Position numbers and translations under genes: made by a program. Of a stretch of DNA of 64,000 bases, positions 26,119 to 37,078 are shown in pieces. Position 1 is the first letter of the stretch; the number at the start of each line of letters is the position of its first letter. Below the pieces are notes generated by a model that ran no database searches, was not told the DNA's origin, and saw only the letters and a list, made by a program, of their open reading frames with translations. Source of the stretch: Candidatus Freyarchaeum deiterrae (lineage in GTDB: Archaea > Asgardarchaeota > Jordiarchaeia > Jordiarchaeales > Jordiarchaeaceae); assembly GCA_037305845.1 (NCBI GenBank), contig CP147778.1, forward strand, positions 2,240,001 through 2,304,000, given 5' to 3'.

Positions 26119-26760
26119 TTGGAAACCAAAAATATTGTGATGCATATGTCGGTGTCTATGTTTTATCAAAAACTAGAGGAGGATGTCAAAAAGGTAAACG
26201 AACTGGAAAAAAAGGGTGATTTCAAAACTGCGGCGAAAAAGTGGGTCGAAATAGCCGAGTATTGTTTGTCATTTGCTAAATCCGAATATGCTTCTGAGGA
26301 AGTTAAAAAGAATCTTATTGAGAAATCCGAGGGTTACATAGAGCATGCTAAAATGCTTAGGCTAAAACCGGTTCCTCTAAAAGGAACCATAGAAGAAAGC
26401 TCATTTGGAATAGATTACATAGAAAAGGCTTTGGATGAAAAGTCGCAAGCCGATAAACAATGGATGGCATTTGACATAAGCTCCTATATAGTGACTATGT
26501 ACCGCGTAATAGAAAAGTTGCTTTTTCATGTTTACATTTCCAAAACGGGCAATCTCCCCCGCCTTGATGCCAAGTTTACGTCTCTCGCAAAATGGGCATA
26601 CCAAAATGGAATAATAAACGATCATCCGGATAACATGGAATTTGTCAGGCTACTTTATGAAAAAGTAACAAAAAAATCTCAAAAAGTAACTAATGAACAT
26701 GCTATGGAAGCGAGAGAGATAATGGAAAGAGTGTATAAGGAATTGTGTAAAAATATTTGA
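26119..26760 (+). CDS. MIT-domain protein with helical (HEPN-like) C-terminal domain
   Basis: VNELEKKGDFKTAAKKW.E..E......K......K..LIEKSEGYIEHAKML three-helix MIT pattern. Start uncertain. Confidence 0.65.
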   Translation: METKNIVMHMSVSMFYQKLEEDVKKVNELEKKGDFKTAAKKWVEIAEYCLSFAKSEYASEEVKKNLIEKSEGYIEHAKMLRLKPVPLKGTIEESSFGIDYIEKALDEKSQADKQWMAFDISSYIVTMYRVIEKLLFHVYISKTGNLPRLDAKFTSLAKWAYQNGIINDHPDNMEFVRLLYEKVTKKSQKVTNEHAMEAREIMERVYKELCKNI

Positions 26761-27482: not shown

Positions 27483-27733
27483 TACCTGCTGCCTCCTACC
27501 TGTTAACTTAAACCTTATAGGAATTAAACGTTTCTAAATATTTCTCGTAAGCATTTACGATATCCTCCCCCTCCACTGTTTTTAATTTTTGTGGAAAAGG
27601 AATCCTCTTGGTGCGAAAGTTTTCTTGGGTGATATTCAGATAACCTATGGGTATGCTCTTCAACTCTACGTGGATAATAGTCACTAAGATAAATGCGCTT
27701 CGAGAGGTTCTTTTTAAAGGCGGTGGGATCAAT

Positions 27734-29245
27734 TTGATCTCCTCGGAAAGATTCAAGTGCATTTTTTGTGGGAATTCGGAAGTAGCTTATTATTGTGAAG
27801 AATGTAAAAGATCCTTTTGTATCAGCTGTGCTAAAGAGAAAAAAGAAGAATATTTCTTCTGCGGGTCTTGTGGTTCAAAAGAAATAAATCTAGAAGAAAA
27901 CAAAAATTCGAAGAAAGGTTGTCAAGATTGTGGTTCAATTTATATTAGGAAAGGTACTAAAAAATGGAAGTTATGTCCTAATTGTAATTCTAGTATAGTT
28001 AAAAGTATACAGGATAAGGCGACTGAACTTCAAAAGATTATTAATGAGAATGTTAACGCCTTAATTTATGGACATGAATTATTAAAAGATTTTTCGAGGA
28101 GACTTAAAGAAACTAGAAGTAAACTGGTTTTTCTAAGGCATAGAGGATATTTTCATTACCCACAAATGGAAGAAACTGTAATTTTCCTCTTTCAAGAAAT
28201 TGTTCCGATAAAAAAGAAGGTTGAAGCACGGGCTCAACAGGTCTTGAACGTGGTTAAGTCACAACTTATAGACTTTTCTTATCCCGACAATTGGAGTCCG
28301 CATAATTTTCCTCAAATACAGACAGCAATAGATAGGATATCCGCAGATGTCGAAGAGTATAAAACTTATGTAAAAGAACTTTTGGCTTTGCCTGAAAAAA
28401 ATCTAGAGTCTGTTACTTCTACCGTAAAACTACTAAATCATCATTTCAACTTTTTTGAAGAGCATAGAGAAAAAATAGACTTGGAAATCAGCGAAAGACC
28501 CGTGGCGGCCATACCCGGAGTAAAATATGTAGGCAGCTCTTTTCTAAGTTTAGATACGGCTAATGGTATACTTTTATTCACGGATAAAAGGTTGATATTC
28601 ATCAGAGAGAAGGGTATGCGAAACAAGTCCTATTTGAAGCATTTTGAATTTCCGCTAAAAGCTTTTCAAATTGGGAAGGAAGGATCTATTCGAAAAAAAG
28701 TCTTTTTCGAGAGTCTACAGGGAGACCTAAAATTCACTGCTCCCCAAAATATTCTTGAAGCAATTGAAAAGTATACGGAATTAGCTAAAAACTTTGATAA
28801 GAACTCTATAAATGAAAAGAATCAAACAAAGTTAGAAGGCCTAGAAATAATCCTTGACGACCTAAAAAAAGAGTTGAACAAAAAAATTCAGAGCATTTTC
28901 ACTCCAAGAGTTAAAGATTCAAGCCAAGAGTTAACCCCGAAACTGATTAATCCTGATTTAGCTAATAGACCTATTCAAAGAGCAAAAGGTAGATTGCCTG
29001 TATATAACAATTTTCAGGATCCCAGCATGGACGAATTGAGAAACAAGGAAATATCTCACTGGCAAAGTAAAAAATTTTCCGACGAGCAGCTTCTCAAAAA
29101 AAATGATGAACTATGGAAGCGTGGAGAAATCCCCGCGGAAGATTATTTTAAAAGAATAAAAACCATTCACGAGGAACTCTATCTCATAGATAAGAAATTG
29201 AAGGAACTTGGAATTCAAAATGAAACCATTGAAACAAGCTCTTGA
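27734..29245 (+). CDS. Multi-Zn-finger + coiled coil + PH-like domain + C-terminal steadiness-box-like helix pair
   Basis: Repeated CxxC pairs; GILLFTDKRLIF (PH-like); LWKRGEIPAEDYFKRIKTIHEELYL resembles the Vps23/TSG101 steadiness box. Start TTG after GGTGG. Confidence 0.6.
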   Translation: MISSERFKCIFCGNSEVAYYCEECKRSFCISCAKEKKEEYFFCGSCGSKEINLEENKNSKKGCQDCGSIYIRKGTKKWKLCPNCNSSIVKSIQDKATELQKIINENVNALIYGHELLKDFSRRLKETRSKLVFLRHRGYFHYPQMEETVIFLFQEIVPIKKKVEARAQQVLNVVKSQLIDFSYPDNWSPHNFPQIQTAIDRISADVEEYKTYVKELLALPEKNLESVTSTVKLLNHHFNFFEEHREKIDLEISERPVAAIPGVKYVGSSFLSLDTANGILLFTDKRLIFIREKGMRNKSYLKHFEFPLKAFQIGKEGSIRKKVFFESLQGDLKFTAPQNILEAIEKYTELAKNFDKNSINEKNQTKLEGLEIILDDLKKELNKKIQSIFTPRVKDSSQELTPKLINPDLANRPIQRAKGRLPVYNNFQDPSMDELRNKEISHWQSKKFSDEQLLKKNDELWKRGEIPAEDYFKRIKTIHEELYLIDKKLKELGIQNETIETSS

Positions 29246-29315
29246 ACGATTGCCTACTGAACAAGGATATAACATATTCTCCTCGTTTTCTGAAAATTAT
29301 GTAAAAGTGGTTTTT

Positions 29316-29558
29316 CTACTTCTCTTTTTCTTTGGGTTTCTTGGAACTGTCTAATTCTTTTTTCAGGTCTTCCAGTTCGGACGCTAACGATGATTTCTCT
29401 GCTATTGTATCGGTTTGTGGTACCTTGGGTTCTTCTACTCCTTCTAGAGCAATTTCTGCCTCAAGGCGGTTGAGTTCACGGTCAATATCTCCGGTTTCCT
29501 CTACACCCATTTCTGTGGGTGTTGCCAAAATCTCTGAGCTTCTCTCTATTTCATGCAA
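29316..29558 (-). pseudogene. Duplicated 3' fragment of the snf7 gene
   Basis: Colinear with 31448-31690; ~24 nt differences counted by eye, only 2 amino-acid changes; no 5' part. Confidence 0.8.
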
Positions 29559-29997
29559 TTACATAATGTTTTAACACTATTCTATAAAAACCTCCCACCA
29601 ATAAGTTGAGACTTTCACCCATTGTTCTATCTGGAGAATCTCTCTCGAGATATGTAATTTTTGACCGATTTTTTACACATTTTTTGCATACGATAATTTC
29701 ACAGTAAATCCCCCCTCTTTTTATACCAGGAAGCAAGAATCCCATAAAACTCTGAAATTGTATTTTCTTTCCAATTTTTCTTTAAACGTTAGATTACTAA
29801 TTTCATATTCGATTAAAATTATTACGGAAATGGAAACAATTAATAAAATTACAAGAGCCCCGGGCCATGGTTCTGGATTAGCAGGATCAAGGGCTTCATA
29901 GTTACTATTAATTTGATAATTGAGGAATATCGAAAGTATTTGATTTATTACTTCAAATCTAGCACACAAACATGAGACCAAGAGCTGACCACACGCG

Positions 29998-30438
29998 CTA
30001 GCCGTGGGTCGAGGACTCGTTCAGGCTAACAGCAGCTCGAATGAGGGTCGCGAAAGCCTTCTCATCGATTTCATCGTCCTCGTGGAAGTCGATTGCGCGC
30101 CGGGTGTTGCCTTTGAGGCTTGAGTTGAACAGTCCCGAAGGGTCCTTCAGCGAGGCCCCCTTGAAGAATGTAAGTTTCACGACGCTCTTGTACGTCTCGC
30201 CGGTGCAGATCGGACCTTGGTGAGACCACACCGGAACCCCTGGATGAGAAGGCTTTCTCCACTTCCACTCCTCCACCACCTCAGGGTCGGCTTGCTTGAT
30301 CAGAGCGCGAATCTGCGACAGCTTCTTTCCGCGCCAATCATCGAGCTCCCTTATCCTCGCGTCTATCAGCTGAGATGGAGACTCAACATCCGGCGAGCTA
30401 CCCTTCTTCTTCATTTTGCCATTCATTAGTATACCCAA
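29998..30438 (-). CDS. DUF1801 (YdhG-like) family protein, bacterial-like
   Basis: DWRG..L..IRALI..ADPEVVEEWKW..GVPVWS..G.ICTGETYK..VKLTF.KGA.L.DP.GLFNSSL.GNTRRAID; GC-richer than the flanks. Confidence 0.85.
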   Translation of the reverse strand: MGILMNGKMKKKGSSPDVESPSQLIDARIRELDDWRGKKLSQIRALIKQADPEVVEEWKWRKPSHPGVPVWSHQGPICTGETYKSVVKLTFFKGASLKDPSGLFNSSLKGNTRRAIDFHEDDEIDEKAFATLIRAAVSLNESSTHG

Positions 30439-30734
30439 AACCTACACGTAGTATACCCTTTTACGCCTTTCTAAAACCGATCGGTCGCATAACCTCCCTT
30501 GTCAGCCAGACCGCACCATTTACGCGTAACGTGCCTTTAGGCGCACGTTCAGTAGAAAACTACCTTAGAGACCCACCCCACGTTTAATGTGAAAATCCTC
30601 GTTAGTAGTAGTGTAGTTTTATTTTTAACTTTTATTTTATATGTTATGTTGTTTGATTTAGGTCATATATATAATAAGAGCCAAGTTCACGTAAAGTCTG
30701 CCCCCTCCCCCTTTCCTAATTGTTCCCCTGGCAC

Positions 30735-31106
30735 CCAGACCGTAGAATCACTCAAACAAACACTAAGGAACAAAAATAATCAGGTTACAAGAGAAGCGAT
30801 AGAAACCCTCGGAAACACAAAAGACCCCCAAGCAGTAAACCCCCTCCTCAGAATCGTCCTAAACCCCAACGAAAAAATGGAGACCAAAATAAAAGCAGTA
30901 GAAGCCCTCGGAAACATAGGAGACCAAAGAGCACTAGAACCACTATACGAAGTCCTAAACGAAGAATACGGTGAAACCCCAGAAGGAAAATACAACCCGG
31001 TATACCAATCGACCAGCAAACCGAAAAATGGAACGAAGAATTCCCAATACACGAAGAAATGGTGGAAACCATAAGAGAAGCCATACAGCGAATCGAAGAA
31101 CCATAA
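30735..31106 (+). pseudogene. HEAT/PBS-lyase repeat protein fragment with frameshift
   Basis: AIETLGN..DPQAVNPLL and AVEALGNIGDQRALEPL. Continues in another frame near 30998 (GIPIDQQ..EEMVETIREAIQRIEEP*); no clear start. Confidence 0.6.
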
Positions 31107-31447
31107 TAACCAACAATAAGAAAAAAATTAGTTACCATATAACAAACAAATCATCGATGCAACACCTAAAAATCCTTAAAATCCCTTTTTACAGTCGAAT
31201 GAACATAGAAACTAAACACAACACTCTTTAAACCTATTTCTTGCAGATTTGAGAACCCTTTCCTTTAGTGGGGTTGCGAAGCTTTCTATCATCACATTTC
31301 GAATTTTTGAGAGAAAAAGCATATTAAGCAAGTGAAAAATGCAATAACACTGTCGAATACATAAGAAAAACACAATTAATCAAATAGCCTCGTAGAATCT
31401 GCGAAATATCGGTTCGGTTTAAAAGAAAAGATGCAAAAATGGTTGCT

Positions 31448-32086
31448 CTACTTTTCTTTCTCCTTGGGTTTCTTGGAAGTATCTAACTCTTTTTTCAGGT
31501 CTTCTAGTTCAGATGCTAGCGATGATTTCTCCGCTATTGTATCGGTTTGTGGTACCTTGGGTTCTTCAACCCCTTCCAGGGCGATCTCCGCCTCAAGGCG
31601 GTTGAGTTCACGGTCAACATCTCCGGTTTCCTCTACACCCATTTCCGTGGGCGTTGCCAAAATCTCTGAGCTTCTCTCAATCTCGTGCATGTCTTCTTCT
31701 TGCTTGATCATCATTTCGAGTATCTCTTCTGAGTTAGCTAGTTTTCGCGCATTATCAAGTTCTACTCCTGCTAGTTGAAATGCGCCTTTGAGCTCTGAGA
31801 CATCATGAGCTTCCTCAATGGCAATCAGCCTAGTCTCAAGATTCTCTATGAACGCCGTGTACTTGCCCAGGAAGTTCTCGTATCTTCTATATTTTCTAAG
31901 AGAAAAGGTAGCCATATTCCTGTTACCCATTTTTAGGTACTGTTTCGCTTTAGTCCTCTCTTCAATCGCTTTTCTCTCATAGTTACGTGAACGCAAAGTT
32001 AGCCTGTTGATATTACCCCTTAGCGATGCGATTATCTCATCCTTGTCCTTTGGCCTTTTTCCAAAAAGTATATCCTTAAAGCTCAT
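31448..32086 (-). CDS. ESCRT-III Snf7/Vps20/32/60-like subunit
   Basis: LFGK N-terminus, AKQYLKMGNR..A...LRK, NLETRLIAIEEA, acidic C-terminus DVDRELNRLEAE. Confidence 0.85.
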   Translation of the reverse strand: MSFKDILFGKRPKDKDEIIASLRGNINRLTLRSRNYERKAIEERTKAKQYLKMGNRNMATFSLRKYRRYENFLGKYTAFIENLETRLIAIEEAHDVSELKGAFQLAGVELDNARKLANSEEILEMMIKQEEDMHEIERSSEILATPTEMGVEETGDVDRELNRLEAEIALEGVEEPKVPQTDTIAEKSSLASELEDLKKELDTSKKPKEKEK

Positions 32087-32180
32087 ATTATTCTCCTCTA
32101 TGCTAATTCACTCATAGATTTTCTACTAATATAATGATTTAAATCATTTATTAAATTCTCCCCTTTAGGCATTTCATATC

Positions 32181-33248
32181 CTATCCGTATATACGGCTTA
32201 TTTCTCTTTTTCTAGTCTCTATGAATTCGATAAATTCTTCTAGTGAGGGATCCTCCTCAGCCTCTTCAGAAACTAATTCCGCCATACTGATTAATGAAGC
32301 TGCTACATGTGTACGAGCAGGCTCAGATTTTATTTCAGGCTTAATAAGCGATACTATTCTTTTTTCGAAGTCTTTTAACGTAAGAACCTTATCCACAAGT
32401 AACATAAAAGATTCTGTTATTCCCTTCTCTAATTCCTGTTTCTCATCCAATACTCCATTCGCTGCAAGATTTTTAAGCGCGGGGCTCACAATATCCCTCC
32501 TAAACCAATCAAAGAGTACACCCTTTTTACTGGAAGGTGGAAGAAAGCTTGAAACAGGGGAACTAATGGTTTTTGGTTCTTTCTTAGCGTATTCCGCCAC
32601 TTTATTAGTATTTAAAGTTTTAATAGTTTCCATCGCAGCTAGTATTAGAGAGGTCACCCCTAAAACAACTTCTCTCCTACTGTAGTGTTCTAACATTTTT
32701 TTAAGAGCCTGTGAAGTTTCTTCAAAAGAAACGCCCCCCGATATAAACGATTTAAAAAGCTCCAAAATCATACCTCTTGTCTCAAGAGCTTCACTAAAGC
32801 TAACACTATCCAGAGTTAAAATTCGATACGCCGAGTCTAAAACCTGTTTATCAAACCATCTCACCACTATATACTCCTCTGTTAACCTCTTCAGATCTTC
32901 TGGAACAAGTTTCTCCTCGGTATCTTCTAAAGCGCTACATAGTTGCGAGGCGAAGGTTTCAAAAACTGAAGATACGTAAGCACGTAGCGTTTCATCCAGT
33001 TTAAGCCTTGATAACATCTTATCGACGTTTTTTTGAAACTGGGATTTGGAACCTTTTCTTTCTAAGTAGTTTTTGAAATGTGGGAATATTTCATCCTTCA
33101 TTAGTTGGGATTCTTCAGGAGTCAGATTAGTTGTGATGTTGTCTAGAACACCGAAAACTACATAGTCAAAAAACTCTCTTAAAATTTTCAAATTTTTTTC
33201 CGAATCAAAAATGGCGACCATGGTTGGCTTCACCGGAGGGTCATTCAA
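32181..33248 (-). CDS. Hypothetical all-alpha protein with three ~100-aa internal repeats
   Basis: 355-aa ORF overlapping the upstream ATPase stop; recurring F/W..(V)L and F..F.......F...(V/L)..(M/L)L segments. Confidence 0.7.
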   Translation of the reverse strand: MNDPPVKPTMVAIFDSEKNLKILREFFDYVVFGVLDNITTNLTPEESQLMKDEIFPHFKNYLERKGSKSQFQKNVDKMLSRLKLDETLRAYVSSVFETFASQLCSALEDTEEKLVPEDLKRLTEEYIVVRWFDKQVLDSAYRILTLDSVSFSEALETRGMILELFKSFISGGVSFEETSQALKKMLEHYSRREVVLGVTSLILAAMETIKTLNTNKVAEYAKKEPKTISSPVSSFLPPSSKKGVLFDWFRRDIVSPALKNLAANGVLDEKQELEKGITESFMLLVDKVLTLKDFEKRIVSLIKPEIKSEPARTHVAASLISMAELVSEEAEEDPSLEEFIEFIETRKREISRIYG

Positions 33249-36200
33249 TTAGTGATCTTTGCAGCTGCTCAATTTTTTCAATGGTTTTTCTTTTTAGAAA
33301 AATGTATTCGTCCTCAGCCATCCTGCCTAATTCATAGTATTCCTGCAAACTCTTTAGATATTTGTTGAATTTCTGTATCTCCTTAATGCTTTTTTCCTGT
33401 TCTATCTGCTTGTTAGTTTTCTCCTCTATCTCTGGTGTTTCCGTTTTCATAACCACTGGTGCTTCTAAAGGTTCCTGAAGTTCTGGTTCAATGTTTTCCT
33501 CGGCTTTAATACTGGGTCTGGGTGGTGGAGTGGGTAATTCCGGAAGTTTTTCAACCTTGGCTTTCTCTAGTAACTGTTTGGGTTTCGGCTTCGGATGCTT
33601 TCGGGGTGCTATTTTTAAATTATTAACTACGCTTTTTAGTGATGAAATTATACCTGTTGCTTCGCTCCTTTGAGCTGATGTAGATAAAATAAGAATTACT
33701 GTACTATCCTCGGTTTCTACAACTCCTAATGAAACCCGCGATTTGTCCTTGGAGCCTAAAATCACCGGTACACCCTTTGCAGCGTTTATTTGAGGTTGCC
33801 ATCCATCTTCCTTTAATTTGCTATAAACATCACGGATAACTTCAACGCTATCCGCTTGTGACAATATTTTTTCGACGGCGGTTTCCATTTTTGGGACTGG
33901 ATACAAATGATTGTAGAATCCATAGTCCAAAACCCGTTTTATGTAATTAGCGGCTAAATCGTTTGATAAACCGAGTACTGGTGGAGAAGGAATTGTTATA
34001 TCTGGGGCTATTTCAACCACTTCTTCTTCTACTACTACCCCCTCCGGAGACTCTGTGGCTTCTGTTTCGGATACTTTTTCTATTTTCTCAGTGGTCTCCT
34101 CAATTTTTTCCGGAGTAACGATAGATTTCGATGGAGTTGATGCAAGTTCCTCAACCATTTTGGGAAGCGCTTCCCGACCGGAATGCTGACTTAGTCTCGG
34201 CCTGATTTTAACCACGAGGGCACGGCTACTAGTGATTGATTCGTCTGAAACAATCGTGGTTCCAATTGGAATATTACGCAGAAATCCTGAGTCCTTTATC
34301 TCCTCAGGAATCTCTTTAGGTGATCTCTTTGTAAAAGCAATAATGTCTGGTTCATATGACAAATAATGTGTTATCAGTATATCTATTTGAGATAAAACTC
34401 GATTGTCTGTAGCTGAGGGTTGCTGGGTTACCAGTACCAAGCCACAACCCGGTTTTCTTCCGAGCTTGGTAAACTCGATTAGGGGATCAGAGGCTGCGGT
34501 GACCCCTCTGGAAGGAACGAGTAAGTGTGCTTCATCAATCATCAACCAGGTCACTGGAATCTCCGCTTCAACTTTCTCATTTGATGCTTCTCTCAGTTGG
34601 GCGGCTTCCTCTGTTCTTGAAATCTGTAACCTCACCCTGAGAATTCTTCGCGCCAGTATGCCAATAACTAGAGCACGCAAGCTATCATCTAGATTGCTTA
34701 CATCTATAACAGATATTTGATTTGGAACTGCCAATTGCATTAAGCTGGTTCCTTTATCTGAGAAAATTCCCCACTGTTTTGCCGAAGAGAATCTCGCAAC
34801 AAACGCTCTTCGTGTATCGCGTCTAAACCCTTTATCTTCGGATATAATCTCCGAAGAAGTTTCAACACATTTAATTAAATCATCTATAGTGTAGATGTCT
34901 CCCTTACCCGTAATGTTTAACTCTTGGTCATCGGTCATAGCCTTGTAGCCGTTTTTAACTTTTTCAATAACCTGTTCAGTTAAAAGGCCTAACGTGCTAA
35001 ATCTATCTATACTAAAGGTATGACACCAATCATCGGCCGATAGCTCCGAGGGCTTTAACGAGAAGGCGGCGTCTTTCGTTTGTTCTGGAACTCTATCATA
35101 GAAGCCTATAGGGACAAAAACCTTTACGTTACTAAAACCCTTAGTTGTGAGTTCCCATTTTTCAAGTGTTTCTAACTCTCTTTTATCCCAATTGGGGTAC
35201 TTCATGCTCCAAAATATTCCCATAGGGTCAACAATAATCGTCGCAATTCCTAATTCTGACTCCGCCAACTCTTCTGCGATAACACCCATAGTATAAGATT
35301 TTCCAGATCCTCTATGACCGCTTATAAATATGACATGGGGAGTCACTCCATCTAAGAGAACTTTACAACCAAGTAAGCCGTTATCTTCACTCCTTTTCTC
35401 TCCCACGCGGCCAATGTACATTGTTCCTTTACAGCCTAATTTAGTCTGGGTCACTTTGCTTCTTCCCAAAATAACCGATTCACCTAAACTATCCATAAGT
35501 ACACTAATTGGAGTATCCACTATTGTTGGTGATTCAACACTAGTACCTTTTTCAAAGTTTATTATACCTGCTTCACCATTAATGTAGGCTAGTGCTCGCC
35601 ACAAATCTTTCAAATTGTTCGGATCAGTTTGTTCGGCTATATGCTTTCTAAGATTAGGCTGTTTAGGGTATCTATCAGCATCAAAACCTGACAAGTCCCA
35701 TAATAGAAAATCAACAGTTTCTTTATTTGAGAACCCATTGTAGGGTTTTACTGCATTCAAAGCTTTTTCCAGGTATTCCATCCTATCGGTGGCCATGAGC
35801 AGAAGGAGAAATACCTCAACGCGTTTATCAACATCAATTAGGCTTACTAGTTCAACCATCTTGTCAAGAAGTTTATCATCCGCGTTGTATCTGTAACCTT
35901 CGTACAGAATTTTTATAATTTGGAAGTCTGGTGATTCCTGAGTCGAAGCGTATCTGACAGCGGAATCCAGAGATTTTTGAATCTCCCCCTTTTCGGTTTC
36001 TTTTAATATGGTTCGGAAGGCGTGAACGATTGAAGCAGCAGCTTCGTTGTCAATTTCGCCAGAGTCCGAAATCCAAGCTCCAGAATCTGACTGAATAGAA
36101 ACCAGTTGTCCAACGAGGCTGTCCACTTGTTCTAGAAAAGTTTTGTTTCCAGTAACCCTATTTGCGATAATATAACAGTTTAAAAGGTAGGCTTTTTCTC

Positions 36201-36282
36201 TGGTGGTGACTGGTTTCGCCAGAGAGACTTTCTGTAACATGTCCACTAGTGATGAACATAAAGGTCTTCCCCTACTTAACAA
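33241..36282 (-). CDS. HerA/FtsK-superfamily (DUF87) ATPase with helical N-domain, Pro/Glu linkers and short C-terminal helical domain
   Basis: Walker A GHRGSGKS, IIVDPMG, Walker B LMIDEAH, GRKPG, VTQQPS; 1013 aa. Confidence 0.88.
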   Translation of the reverse strand: MLSRGRPLCSSLVDMLQKVSLAKPVTTREKAYLLNCYIIANRVTGNKTFLEQVDSLVGQLVSIQSDSGAWISDSGEIDNEAAASIVHAFRTILKETEKGEIQKSLDSAVRYASTQESPDFQIIKILYEGYRYNADDKLLDKMVELVSLIDVDKRVEVFLLLLMATDRMEYLEKALNAVKPYNGFSNKETVDFLLWDLSGFDADRYPKQPNLRKHIAEQTDPNNLKDLWRALAYINGEAGIINFEKGTSVESPTIVDTPISVLMDSLGESVILGRSKVTQTKLGCKGTMYIGRVGEKRSEDNGLLGCKVLLDGVTPHVIFISGHRGSGKSYTMGVIAEELAESELGIATIIVDPMGIFWSMKYPNWDKRELETLEKWELTTKGFSNVKVFVPIGFYDRVPEQTKDAAFSLKPSELSADDWCHTFSIDRFSTLGLLTEQVIEKVKNGYKAMTDDQELNITGKGDIYTIDDLIKCVETSSEIISEDKGFRRDTRRAFVARFSSAKQWGIFSDKGTSLMQLAVPNQISVIDVSNLDDSLRALVIGILARRILRVRLQISRTEEAAQLREASNEKVEAEIPVTWLMIDEAHLLVPSRGVTAASDPLIEFTKLGRKPGCGLVLVTQQPSATDNRVLSQIDILITHYLSYEPDIIAFTKRSPKEIPEEIKDSGFLRNIPIGTTIVSDESITSSRALVVKIRPRLSQHSGREALPKMVEELASTPSKSIVTPEKIEETTEKIEKVSETEATESPEGVVVEEEVVEIAPDITIPSPPVLGLSNDLAANYIKRVLDYGFYNHLYPVPKMETAVEKILSQADSVEVIRDVYSKLKEDGWQPQINAAKGVPVILGSKDKSRVSLGVVETEDSTVILILSTSAQRSEATGIISSLKSVVNNLKIAPRKHPKPKPKQLLEKAKVEKLPELPTPPPRPSIKAEENIEPELQEPLEAPVVMKTETPEIEEKTNKQIEQEKSIKEIQKFNKYLKSLQEYYELGRMAEDEYIFLKRKTIEKIEQLQRSLIE

Positions 36283-36331
36283 GAGTGTTTCCCCACACCT
36301 TTTCTGTATTGAAATATGAAAAGAAGAAGCC

Positions 36332-36946
36332 TTAAAGTTCTTCTTTCAATTTCTTAATATCTTTTTCCAGTTCTTCAACTTTTCCGCTAGGTGCTGACGG
36401 GAGCTTTACTCCGGTTTCGACACTTATTTCTTGGTCGATCTCAGAGATAGTAGCTGCGACTTCTTGAGATGTGACTTCTGTGCTAACTGTCATCTTCTCC
36501 ATTCCAGCCTCAAGAACATCTTGACGAACGTCGAATTCTTGCATAATGCTGTCTATTTCCTCAGCGTTTTTAGCAATGTCTTCTGGGAGCTTGACAGCTT
36601 CTTCGAGTCCCTTAAGGGCTTCTCTTACACCCGATATTGTGCTGGCGACGTCAGCTACGGATTCGCTCTGACGGAGTCTAATTACCATACCCTGAATTTT
36701 GAGGCGATAAGAATCTGTTGCTAAAGCCCACTTATTGTACCTTATATAATGTTCGGCGTACATTTTGGCTCCTTCGGCGTTTCCTCTAAGCCTATATTTC
36801 TTAGCATCTTCTCTGTTTTTTCTGGCTTCTCTCTCCAGCTGTTTTTTCTGGTATTCAAGGCGGCGAGTGAAAACATCAAGTTTGTAAACCACTTCTTTTA
36901 TCTTCGGTCCTCCCTTAAGCCAACTTGAGAATTTTCTAAGCGCCAT
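36332..36946 (-). CDS. ESCRT-III Vps2/24/46 (CdvB-like) subunit
   Basis: AKKY...GN.EGAKMYAE, basic N-half and acidic C-half, C-terminal LPSAP...ELEKDIKKLK (MIM-like). Confidence 0.83.
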   Translation of the reverse strand: MALRKFSSWLKGGPKIKEVVYKLDVFTRRLEYQKKQLEREARKNREDAKKYRLRGNAEGAKMYAEHYIRYNKWALATDSYRLKIQGMVIRLRQSESVADVASTISGVREALKGLEEAVKLPEDIAKNAEEIDSIMQEFDVRQDVLEAGMEKMTVSTEVTSQEVAATISEIDQEISVETGVKLPSAPSGKVEELEKDIKKLKEEL

Positions 36947-37078
36947 ACAAAACACCAATCCCTTTTTTGATATTTTTCTAATTCTTTATTTTACCTAATA
37001 GAAGATTCCAGATGGTAGCATATAATACTTTCTTAATGTGCATTCCTCTGTTTTAAAAAGCAGTGAAAATTAAGCCGT

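Follow-up and report, generated by a model that had tools for sequence, protein, structure and literature searches.

Gene content of the locus

We have analyzed a window of 64,000 nucleotides (nt) from Candidatus Freyarchaeum deiterrae, an Asgard archaeon (positions 2,240,001-2,304,000 of the complete single-contig genome CP147778.1, 3,576,204 bp). The same stretch was found in DNA runs from wetland and freshwater-sediment metagenomes. [quoted passage not shown] The four genes, in the order in which they are read, are the following:

36332-36958, minus strand: ESCRT-IIIA (Vps2/24/46 class), 208 amino acids (aa), P0001; Pfam Snf7, E 1.9e-15
33241-36282, minus strand: HerA-clade ring ATPase, 1013 aa, P0002; Pfam DUF87, E 4.6e-14, and HerA_C, E 1.4e-06
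32181-33248, minus strand: all-helical partner protein of no known family, 355 aa, P0003; AlphaFold2 model
31448-32086, minus strand: ESCRT-IIIB (Vps20/32/60, Snf7 class), 212 aa, P0004; Pfam Snf7, E 3.8e-18

An earlier note, made from the sequence alone, had described this region as a non-canonical ESCRT-III operon of four co-oriented genes with short gaps, in which the ATPase took the place of Vps4. The layout is as it was described. The gaps are of 49 nt between ESCRT-IIIA and the ATPase and of 94 nt between the partner and ESCRT-IIIB. The ATPase and partner genes are tightly coupled, and their 8-nt overlap (33241-33248) requires a TTG start for the partner; an ATG 27 nt further in, which is where the partner homologues start, leaves a gap of 19 nt instead. 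The probable true start of ESCRT-IIIA is the ATG at 36946.

A standard ESCRT-III pair with two extra genes

Both outer genes passed the curated cut-off of the Snf7 family (PF03357, 27.3 bits), with 57.4 bits for P0001 and 66.2 bits for P0004. The best match of P0004 in the PDB was the ESCRT-IIIB of a Heimdallarchaeota (9ftl, 3.1e-13), followed by yeast Snf7. The matches of P0001 included CHMP1B, CHMP2A and CHMP3, the top one being an Asgard Vps20/32/60-like chain (1.3e-08), and the gene occupies the upstream slot, that of ESCRT-IIIA, in canonical Asgard pairs. The assignment to the A and B classes rests on these best matches together with reciprocal scores and operon position; the last two fit the IIIA class in 13 of 14 canonical Asgard pairs, while in the remaining one (L104) both genes were scored as IIIA. 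The Pfam and PDB matches thus agree with the classes proposed in the earlier note, Vps2/24/46-like upstream and Snf7-like downstream. Both proteins end in MIM-like helices, read from the sequence as predicted Vps4 MIT-binding tails, that of ESCRT-IIIA being MIM1-like (EELEKDIKKLKEEL). When the tails of lineages with and without the ATPase were compared, no distinctive feature appeared in those that carry it.

A six-frame search of the complete genome found no Snf7 gene above threshold other than P0001 and P0004, both of them flanking the ATPase, and the supplement of the genome paper (Valentin-Alvarado et al.) lists one copy each of two ESCRT-III asCOGs. There is no Vps4 inside the four-gene operon. 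The single Vps4 of the genome (388 aa, with MIT, AAA and Vps4_C domains) is encoded at G000:C1:1523982-1525148, about 750 kb from the ESCRT-III locus, and contains the only Vps4_C match found (G000:C1:1523994-1524113). Its neighbours are a gene of ESCRT-II, Vps25, and SepF, and RadA adjoins the Vps4/Vps25 locus. Since there are only two Snf7 genes and one Vps4 located elsewhere, the locus is the single canonical IIIA/IIIB pair of this genome, and the ATPase and its helical partner are extra genes placed between the two. The description as a non-canonical system does not hold, and of the proposed exchange of Vps4 for the ATPase only the absence of Vps4 from the operon remains. Besides, Vps4 adjoins the same module in Hodarchaeales, Helarchaeales and family f18, indicating that the ATPase adds to the standard Asgard ESCRT-III/Vps4 set and replaces nothing.

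One further Snf7 match stayed below threshold (E 9.6e-4, 19.8 bits); it is located at G000:C1:919428-919706 (L009), inside an open reading frame of 680-917 aa.

Conservation of the arrangement across Asgard archaea

We have examined the neighbourhood of the ATPase at 97 fetched loci, in which open reading frames were called and searched with profiles made from the window proteins, and its distribution in a GTDB sample of the phylum (201 genomes). Homologues of P0002 at 66-83% identity were found in other Jordarchaeia. Those at 33-44% belong to Hodarchaeales, Helarchaeales, Heimdallarchaeia, Thorarchaeia, Bathyarchaeia, Methanofastidiosa, Thermoplasmatota, Hadarchaeota and DPANN lineages.

In Jordarchaeia the order is ESCRT-IIIA, ATPase (ca. 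1015 aa), partner (ca. 350 aa) and ESCRT-IIIB. The same order without the partner was found in a second family of Jordarchaeales, in Helarchaeales and in families f4 and f18; the two Helarchaeales loci and the one f18 locus that were tested have a Vps4 gene of divergent orientation upstream of the module. Hodarchaeales encode Vps25 and Vps4 in one direction and, divergent from them, ESCRT-IIIA, the ATPase and the partner, followed by genes for a small GTPase, a RING protein, ubiquitin, E2 and E1. In Heimdallarchaeia the ATPase, the partner and ESCRT-IIIB follow a conserved gene of opposite orientation, and the ATPase also stands between or beside ESCRT-III genes in four genomes of family f2 (G070, G006, G017 and G047). 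At the other Asgard loci the ATPase has genes of ESCRT-III or of the helical partner as its two neighbours.

The long form of the ATPase was present in 20 of the 201 genomes. It was adjacent to ESCRT-III in 17 of them, which cover six GTDB families, could not be judged for adjacency in two (contig ends) and was not adjacent in one; as the genomes are related, this count is descriptive and carries no statistic. The module is single-copy and was present in all the sampled members of families f1 (5/5), f20 (3/3), f4 (2/2) and f27 (3/3). In 14 genomes from families for which the 201-genome search gave no match to the ATPase, ESCRT-IIIA and ESCRT-IIIB were directly adjacent, in this order, in 13, and in the fourteenth (L104) a 139-aa gene separates the two Snf7 genes. 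A gene of about 380 aa lies beside the pair in six of these 14; the one tested codes for Vps4. Given that IIIA and IIIB are immediate neighbours where the ATPase is not found, the ATPase, with or without the partner, appears to have been inserted into the canonical pair.

The linkage of ESCRT-III genes with the HerA-type ATPase is genuine and far exceeds what chance would give. It has been kept through rearrangements of different kinds, Hodarchaeales retaining only ESCRT-IIIA beside the ATPase and Heimdallarchaeia only ESCRT-IIIB, which argues for selection on the linkage; this survival is a stronger argument than the number of genomes. The adjacency that the earlier note had reported from one locus is therefore conserved in several Asgard families, and no Snf7 gene was found within 8 kb of the ATPase at any of the non-Asgard loci examined (within 6-8 kb at the Bathyarchaeia loci L004 and L074).

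The divergent gene of Heimdallarchaeia codes for a protein of 1040-1085 aa without a Pfam match and is always found beside the ATPase (L005:2632-5742; also L030, L033, L035, L039 and L040); it may be a further, lineage-specific component. The ATPase of Thorarchaeia is about 730 aa long, lacks the N-terminal domain described below and has no Snf7 gene within 8 kb. This shorter paralogue lies in a different conserved neighbourhood (L081-L097, for example L090:3591-10551), in which TrmI, a pair of proteins of ca. 125 aa and a TPR protein of 779 aa that matches DUF87 weakly are encoded. One of the two small proteins is a winged-helix protein with a weak match to EAP30/Vps36.

The HerA-type ATPase

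P0002 matched the DUF87/HerA central domain with 53.5 bits (cut-off 23.2) and HerA_C with 27.7 bits (cut-off 22), confirming the assignment to the HerA/FtsK family made in the earlier note. An AlphaFold2 model built from an alignment of 18 sequences (predicted local distance difference test, pLDDT, 79) divides the protein as follows, all on the minus strand:

aa 1-247 (nt 35542-36282): helical N-terminal domain
aa 250-700 (nt 34183-35535): HAS-barrel and RecA-like core
aa 702-761: acidic disordered linker
aa 765-893 (nt 33604-33990): compact alpha/beta domain
aa 895-950: proline-rich disordered linker
aa 951-1012 (nt 33247-33432): helical hairpin (block pLDDT 78-91)

The modelled core superposes on HerA hexamers (Foldseek E 4.5e-15 with 9x1m; target TM-score 0.59 with 4d2i). 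Across 18 distant homologues the Walker A motif GSGKS (325-329) and the Walker B DE (583-584) are invariant, as are about 100 columns beyond them, and because of this invariance we predict P0002 to be an active enzyme under strong constraint. We considered the HerA of double-strand break repair as an identity for this protein and rejected it, as it scored about 40 bits with the NCBIfam HerA equivalogs, whose cut-offs are 800-970, and neither NurA nor Mre11 nor Rad50 is encoded nearby.

The non-catalytic parts are distributed differently. The N-terminal domain is common to the Asgard forms, except that of Thorarchaeia, and to those of Bathyarchaeia. None of the searches run gave any similarity of this domain to MIT, Vta1 or Bro1. 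The matches that it did give were weak (squalene-cyclase-like clusters of the ESM Atlas, 0.83-0.85; GH76 and epimerases, E 0.02-0.1), and an alpha/alpha-toroid-like repeat is for the moment a lead and not an assignment. Profile searches with the alpha/beta domain returned coiled-coil noise only. The linker and hairpin that form the tail are confined to Jordarchaeia. The earlier note had compared the hairpin to SHOCT or steadiness-box motifs; the hairpin itself is present in the model, and the resemblance is statistically unsupported. The tail had no match to SHOCT, steadiness box or Vps23 core in Pfam at E values up to 5. Its motif YELGRMAEDEY resembles, below significance, the tail of the adjacent protein with zinc ribbons, a PH-like region and a coiled coil (LWKRGEIPAEDY): hhalign aligned an 18-residue motif of the two tails at E 0.13 (0.27 for the control), and BLASTP between them gave nothing significant. 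We treat this likeness simply as a lead for a docking contact specific to Jordarchaeia.

The helical partner protein

The model of P0003 (pLDDT 82) consists of three helical bundles (aa 17-108, 116-223 and 242-354). Foldseek found no match in the PDB at E <= 0.001, a wide search with VIA-align gave only generic helical bundles (best Z 7.9), and the PDB sequence profile and two ESM Atlas searches produced nothing usable. Pfam had no match for any of the 16 members of the family, Bro1, Vta1 and MIT included. The family is rare, with 26 representative clusters among 1.84 billion proteins, and its orthologues follow the ATPase at the loci of Jordarchaeia, Hodarchaeales and Heimdallarchaeia. Three distant relatives (P0149, P0153 and P0156) have no adjoining HerA gene and were set aside as uninformative. 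A complex prediction that combined residues 1-250 of the ATPase and the partner with ESCRT-IIIA as the scored chain gave scores of 0.36, 0.00 and 0.00, and counts neither way.

Phylogeny of the ATPase

When a tree was made from the core (quick maximum likelihood, midpoint-rooted, without clade tests), the sequences of Jordarchaeia, Hodarchaeales and Helarchaeales grouped together and those of Thorarchaeia were far away. The clade of Heimdallarchaeia is nearby, among sequences of Bathyarchaeia, Hadarchaeota and Thermoplasmatota. The module may be ancestral, with losses in the Loki, Odin and Atabey lineages and relocation in Thorarchaeia, or may have been transferred between Asgard lineages, the latter being allowed by the grouping of Hodarchaeales with Jordarchaeia and Helarchaeales and not with Heimdallarchaeia.

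A proposed accessory motor of ESCRT-III

We prefer to see the ATPase as an accessory motor that serves the Asgard ESCRT-III machinery alongside Vps4, and would give this interpretation a probability of roughly 55%. The function is drawn from genomic context; what the data establish is which genes are present and in what order, a HerA fold whose Walker motifs are invariant, and the conservation of the arrangement in distant Asgard lineages. The earlier note had suggested membrane remodelling coupled to a ring translocase; the gene-level association behind that idea recurs across Asgard archaea, and the part in which the translocase substitutes for Vps4 has to be dropped. The packaging of DNA or protein into vesicles, one of the roles that it gave as examples, is a conjecture.

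Several observations weigh against an ESCRT-III motor. All of the functional evidence is genomic context. The family of the ATPase occurs throughout the archaea, for the most part without a link to ESCRT-III, and therefore its core activity does not depend on ESCRT-III. The ATPases that are linked do not form one clean clade, as seen in the position of Hodarchaeales. Neither in the ATPase nor in its partner was a NurA, nuclease, DNA-binding or membrane-anchor domain recognised. ESCRT-IIIB has an upstream region of its own with an AT-rich, TATA-like sequence (and a T-rich stretch after its stop codon, both read from the sequence). The RNA evidence is a single metatranscriptome contig of 384 nt from one dataset, identical at 100% to positions 36394-36777 within ESCRT-IIIA, and contigs of this kind are unable to show operon structure.

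As an accessory motor, the HerA ring would be recruited to the ESCRT-III assemblies of membrane necks through those of its parts that are non-catalytic and lineage-specific. The N-terminal helical domain and the C-terminal alpha/beta domain are candidates for this role, as are the helical partner and, in Jordarchaeia, the hairpin. At the neck the ring would thread a polymer using ATP, most probably double-stranded DNA by the precedent of the family (HerA, FtsK and the pumps of the VirB4/CedD type), so that DNA would be cleared from the neck, or pumped through it, before the ESCRT-III cut, as FtsK does at the bacterial septum. We lean to DNA because the characterised relatives of the fold are nucleic-acid pumps, and because a DNA-containing neck under ESCRT-III scission would pose the problem that FtsK solves at the septum. 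In this complete form, in which a hexameric translocase with a dedicated helical adaptor would bind physically to the filaments of ESCRT-III and, before scission, pass DNA (or a different polymer) through the necks or clear it from them, the proposal is tentative and, taken as a whole, rather unlikely to be right in every part.

Alternatively, the ATPase could act on protein, either remodelling or disassembling the ESCRT-III polymer or translocating cargo proteins at the necks, with the partner and the N-terminal domain reading the ESCRT-III tails in the manner of MIT. Encoded between the two subunits of the polymer, it recalls the usual arrangement of Vps4 with IIIA and IIIB, both ESCRT-III proteins keep their MIM-like helices, and the FtsK-HerA superfamily includes protein translocases of the EssC/EccC type. 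However, the parts that should read the tails have no similarity to MIT, Vta1 or Bro1, and the leads for the N-terminal domain favour an alpha/alpha-toroid-like repeat. Vps4 is retained in every lineage checked, leaving no gap in disassembly to be filled, and the ESCRT-III tails are alike with and without the ATPase. We consider a protein substrate improbable, although it is the strongest of the competitors.

Lower still we would place co-regulation without physical coupling, in which a motor of chromosome segregation or repair would share the operon in order to be expressed at the same stage of the cell cycle. The core matches DNA translocases, a homologue in Micrarchaeota adjoins a Hel308-type helicase, and the presence of SepF and RadA around the Vps4/Vps25 locus of this genome indicates that division and DNA genes do cluster loosely. 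But a gene that stands exactly between IIIA and IIIB in several orders, and is kept beside a single ESCRT-III gene in Hodarchaeales and Heimdallarchaeia, is tied more tightly than in a loose regulon, and no linkage to Mre11, Rad50 or NurA was found. Least probable of all is a HerA cassette of a selfish or defence type (SIR2-HerA and DUF4297-HerA being examples of the latter) that landed in the operon without functional link and was then inherited or transferred: partial HerA matches in PADLOC and NCBIfam (anti-phage models included), a tree that allows transfer between Asgard lineages and a locus that accepts insertions, such as the 2.1-kb one after ESCRT-IIIB, speak for it, but those matches are partial and at superfamily level (40 bits against 800-970; up to 60 bits in PADLOC), the partner matches no defence effector in PADLOC, and the ATPase, with its many invariant columns, belongs to a single-copy, syntenic module found in all sampled members of several families, unlike patchy defence islands.

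Comparison with known systems

The mechanism proposed here has its closest analogue in the FtsK of the bacterial divisome, a translocase ring from the same superfamily that is tied genetically and functionally to a membrane-scission machine. Unlike FtsK, P0002 has neither a transmembrane anchor nor the gamma domain, its putative partner is ESCRT-III and not FtsZ, and the coupling is inferred from gene order. With the HerA of HerA-NurA (4d2i, 9x1m) it shares the HAS-barrel and RecA-like fold (Foldseek E 1e-13 to 1e-15), intact Walker motifs and presumably the hexameric state, but the identity is about 16-18% and the NurA, Mre11 and Rad50 neighbours are missing; P0002 adds the helical N-terminal domain of about 250 aa, the C-terminal alpha/beta domain and the linker and hairpin of Jordarchaeia. 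Like Vps4, it is an ATPase encoded in an ESCRT-III operon with a helical domain before the motor. It differs in belonging to the HerA/FtsK class, with the additional-strand RecA-like fold and not AAA+, in lacking MIT and in co-existing with Vps4 itself. The HerA anti-phage systems (SIR2-HerA, DUF4297-HerA) differ in having an effector partner, and the similarity to them is the partial one already mentioned.

The canonical Asgard ESCRT-III/Vps4 cluster comprises genes for IIIA, IIIB, Vps4, Vps25, ESCRT-I-like proteins and ubiquitin (Hatano 2022, PMC9192718; Makarova 2024, PMC11188069; Souza 2025, PMC11804906). The locus studied here has the same single IIIA and IIIB in the same order, the MIM-like tails and a neighbour of the Znr_PH_CC_SB type, and the genome encodes Vps4 and Vps25. 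It departs from the cluster in the 1013-aa HerA-clade ATPase and the 355-aa helical protein between IIIA and IIIB, and in the distance of about 750 kb to Vps4 and Vps25; Vps4 is encoded together with ESCRT-III in the versions of the module of Hodarchaeales, Helarchaeales and f18.

Full-text literature searches returned no paper linking ESCRT with HerA, DUF87 or FtsK, although figures were outside these searches and an unlabelled arrow in a synteny drawing is possible. HerA and FtsK are not mentioned in the text of Makarova 2024, Hatano 2022, Souza 2025, Eme 2023 or a 2025 Current Opinion review. The Makarova survey (PMC11188069) took Vps4 as its scaffold, and this may be why the ATPase is missing from it. 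The locus is a real and conserved variant of the Asgard ESCRT-III locus, and apparently an undescribed one.

In current descriptions Asgard ESCRT-III is a minimal system of two subunits that is driven by Vps4, and as such it serves as a model for the origin of the eukaryotic machinery. If a second, unrelated motor is conserved in the ESCRT-III operon of several Asgard classes, including Hodarchaeales and Heimdallarchaeia, the published list of parts is incomplete. Such a motor would give a handle on the cellular role of Asgard ESCRT-III, be it in loading vesicles, in cutting off protrusions or the bridges between cells, or in transferring DNA. Should it be a translocase that moves DNA, membrane cutting by ESCRT would be coupled to the handling of nucleic acids in archaeal relatives of eukaryotes, and the component might already have been present in the Asgard ancestor and lost on the line to eukaryotes. 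The idea can be tested with recombinant proteins, given that filaments of Asgard ESCRT-IIIA and ESCRT-IIIB have already been reconstituted in vitro.

Neighbouring genes and other observations

Two further genes near the locus may be related to it:

27647-29245, plus strand: probable ESCRT-I-like adaptor of the Znr_PH_CC_SB type, 532 aa; zinc ribbons, weak bPH_3
26119-26760, plus strand: small protein, 213 aa, N-terminus weakly MIT-like, uncertain member of the system; Pfam MIT, E 0.008

The first is convergent on ESCRT-IIIB and is conserved beside it in Jordarchaeia. Its product carries three zinc ribbons of the CxxC...CxxC type, a coiled coil, a PH-like region (weak bPH_3 match, 0.0036) and a C-terminal helical hairpin, and an orthologue has a weak match to a double zinc ribbon. 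On these features it probably belongs to the Znr_PH_CC_SB (cog.011556) ESCRT-I-like family described by Makarova (2024, PMC11188069). The MIT match of the second protein is below the cut-off, and its orthologue in L001 gave 0.0037 for MIT and 0.07 for HEPN; it may be a reader of ESCRT-III tails. A gene for the proteasome alpha subunit separates it from the ESCRT genes. Other neighbours of the four-gene locus are TrmY and TauE.

Downstream of ESCRT-IIIB we found a direct repeat of 264 nt (29294-29557 and 31426-31689, 89% identity with mostly synonymous differences) that copies the 3' end of this gene. The repeat brackets an insert of 2.1 kb (29558-31425) containing a DUF1801 gene (29998-30438, minus strand) and a HEAT-repeat gene (30589-31074, plus strand), in which no integrase was seen. 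In the close relative L001 the gene for the zinc-ribbon adaptor comes directly after ESCRT-IIIB, and the segment looks like an insertion that carried its own replacement for the end of the IIIB gene.

Among the fetched loci, two carry modules at odds with their labels and are probably mis-binned: L022, labelled as a bacterial 'Deferrimicrobium' metagenome-assembled genome, has a typical module of the Helarchaeales type, and L039, labelled as 'Bathyarchaeia', one of the Heimdallarchaeia type. On a contig of an uncultured archaeon (L024:966-1614) a frameshift or an assembly error has divided the gene for ESCRT-IIIA, upstream of the ATPase, into two open reading frames that overlap.

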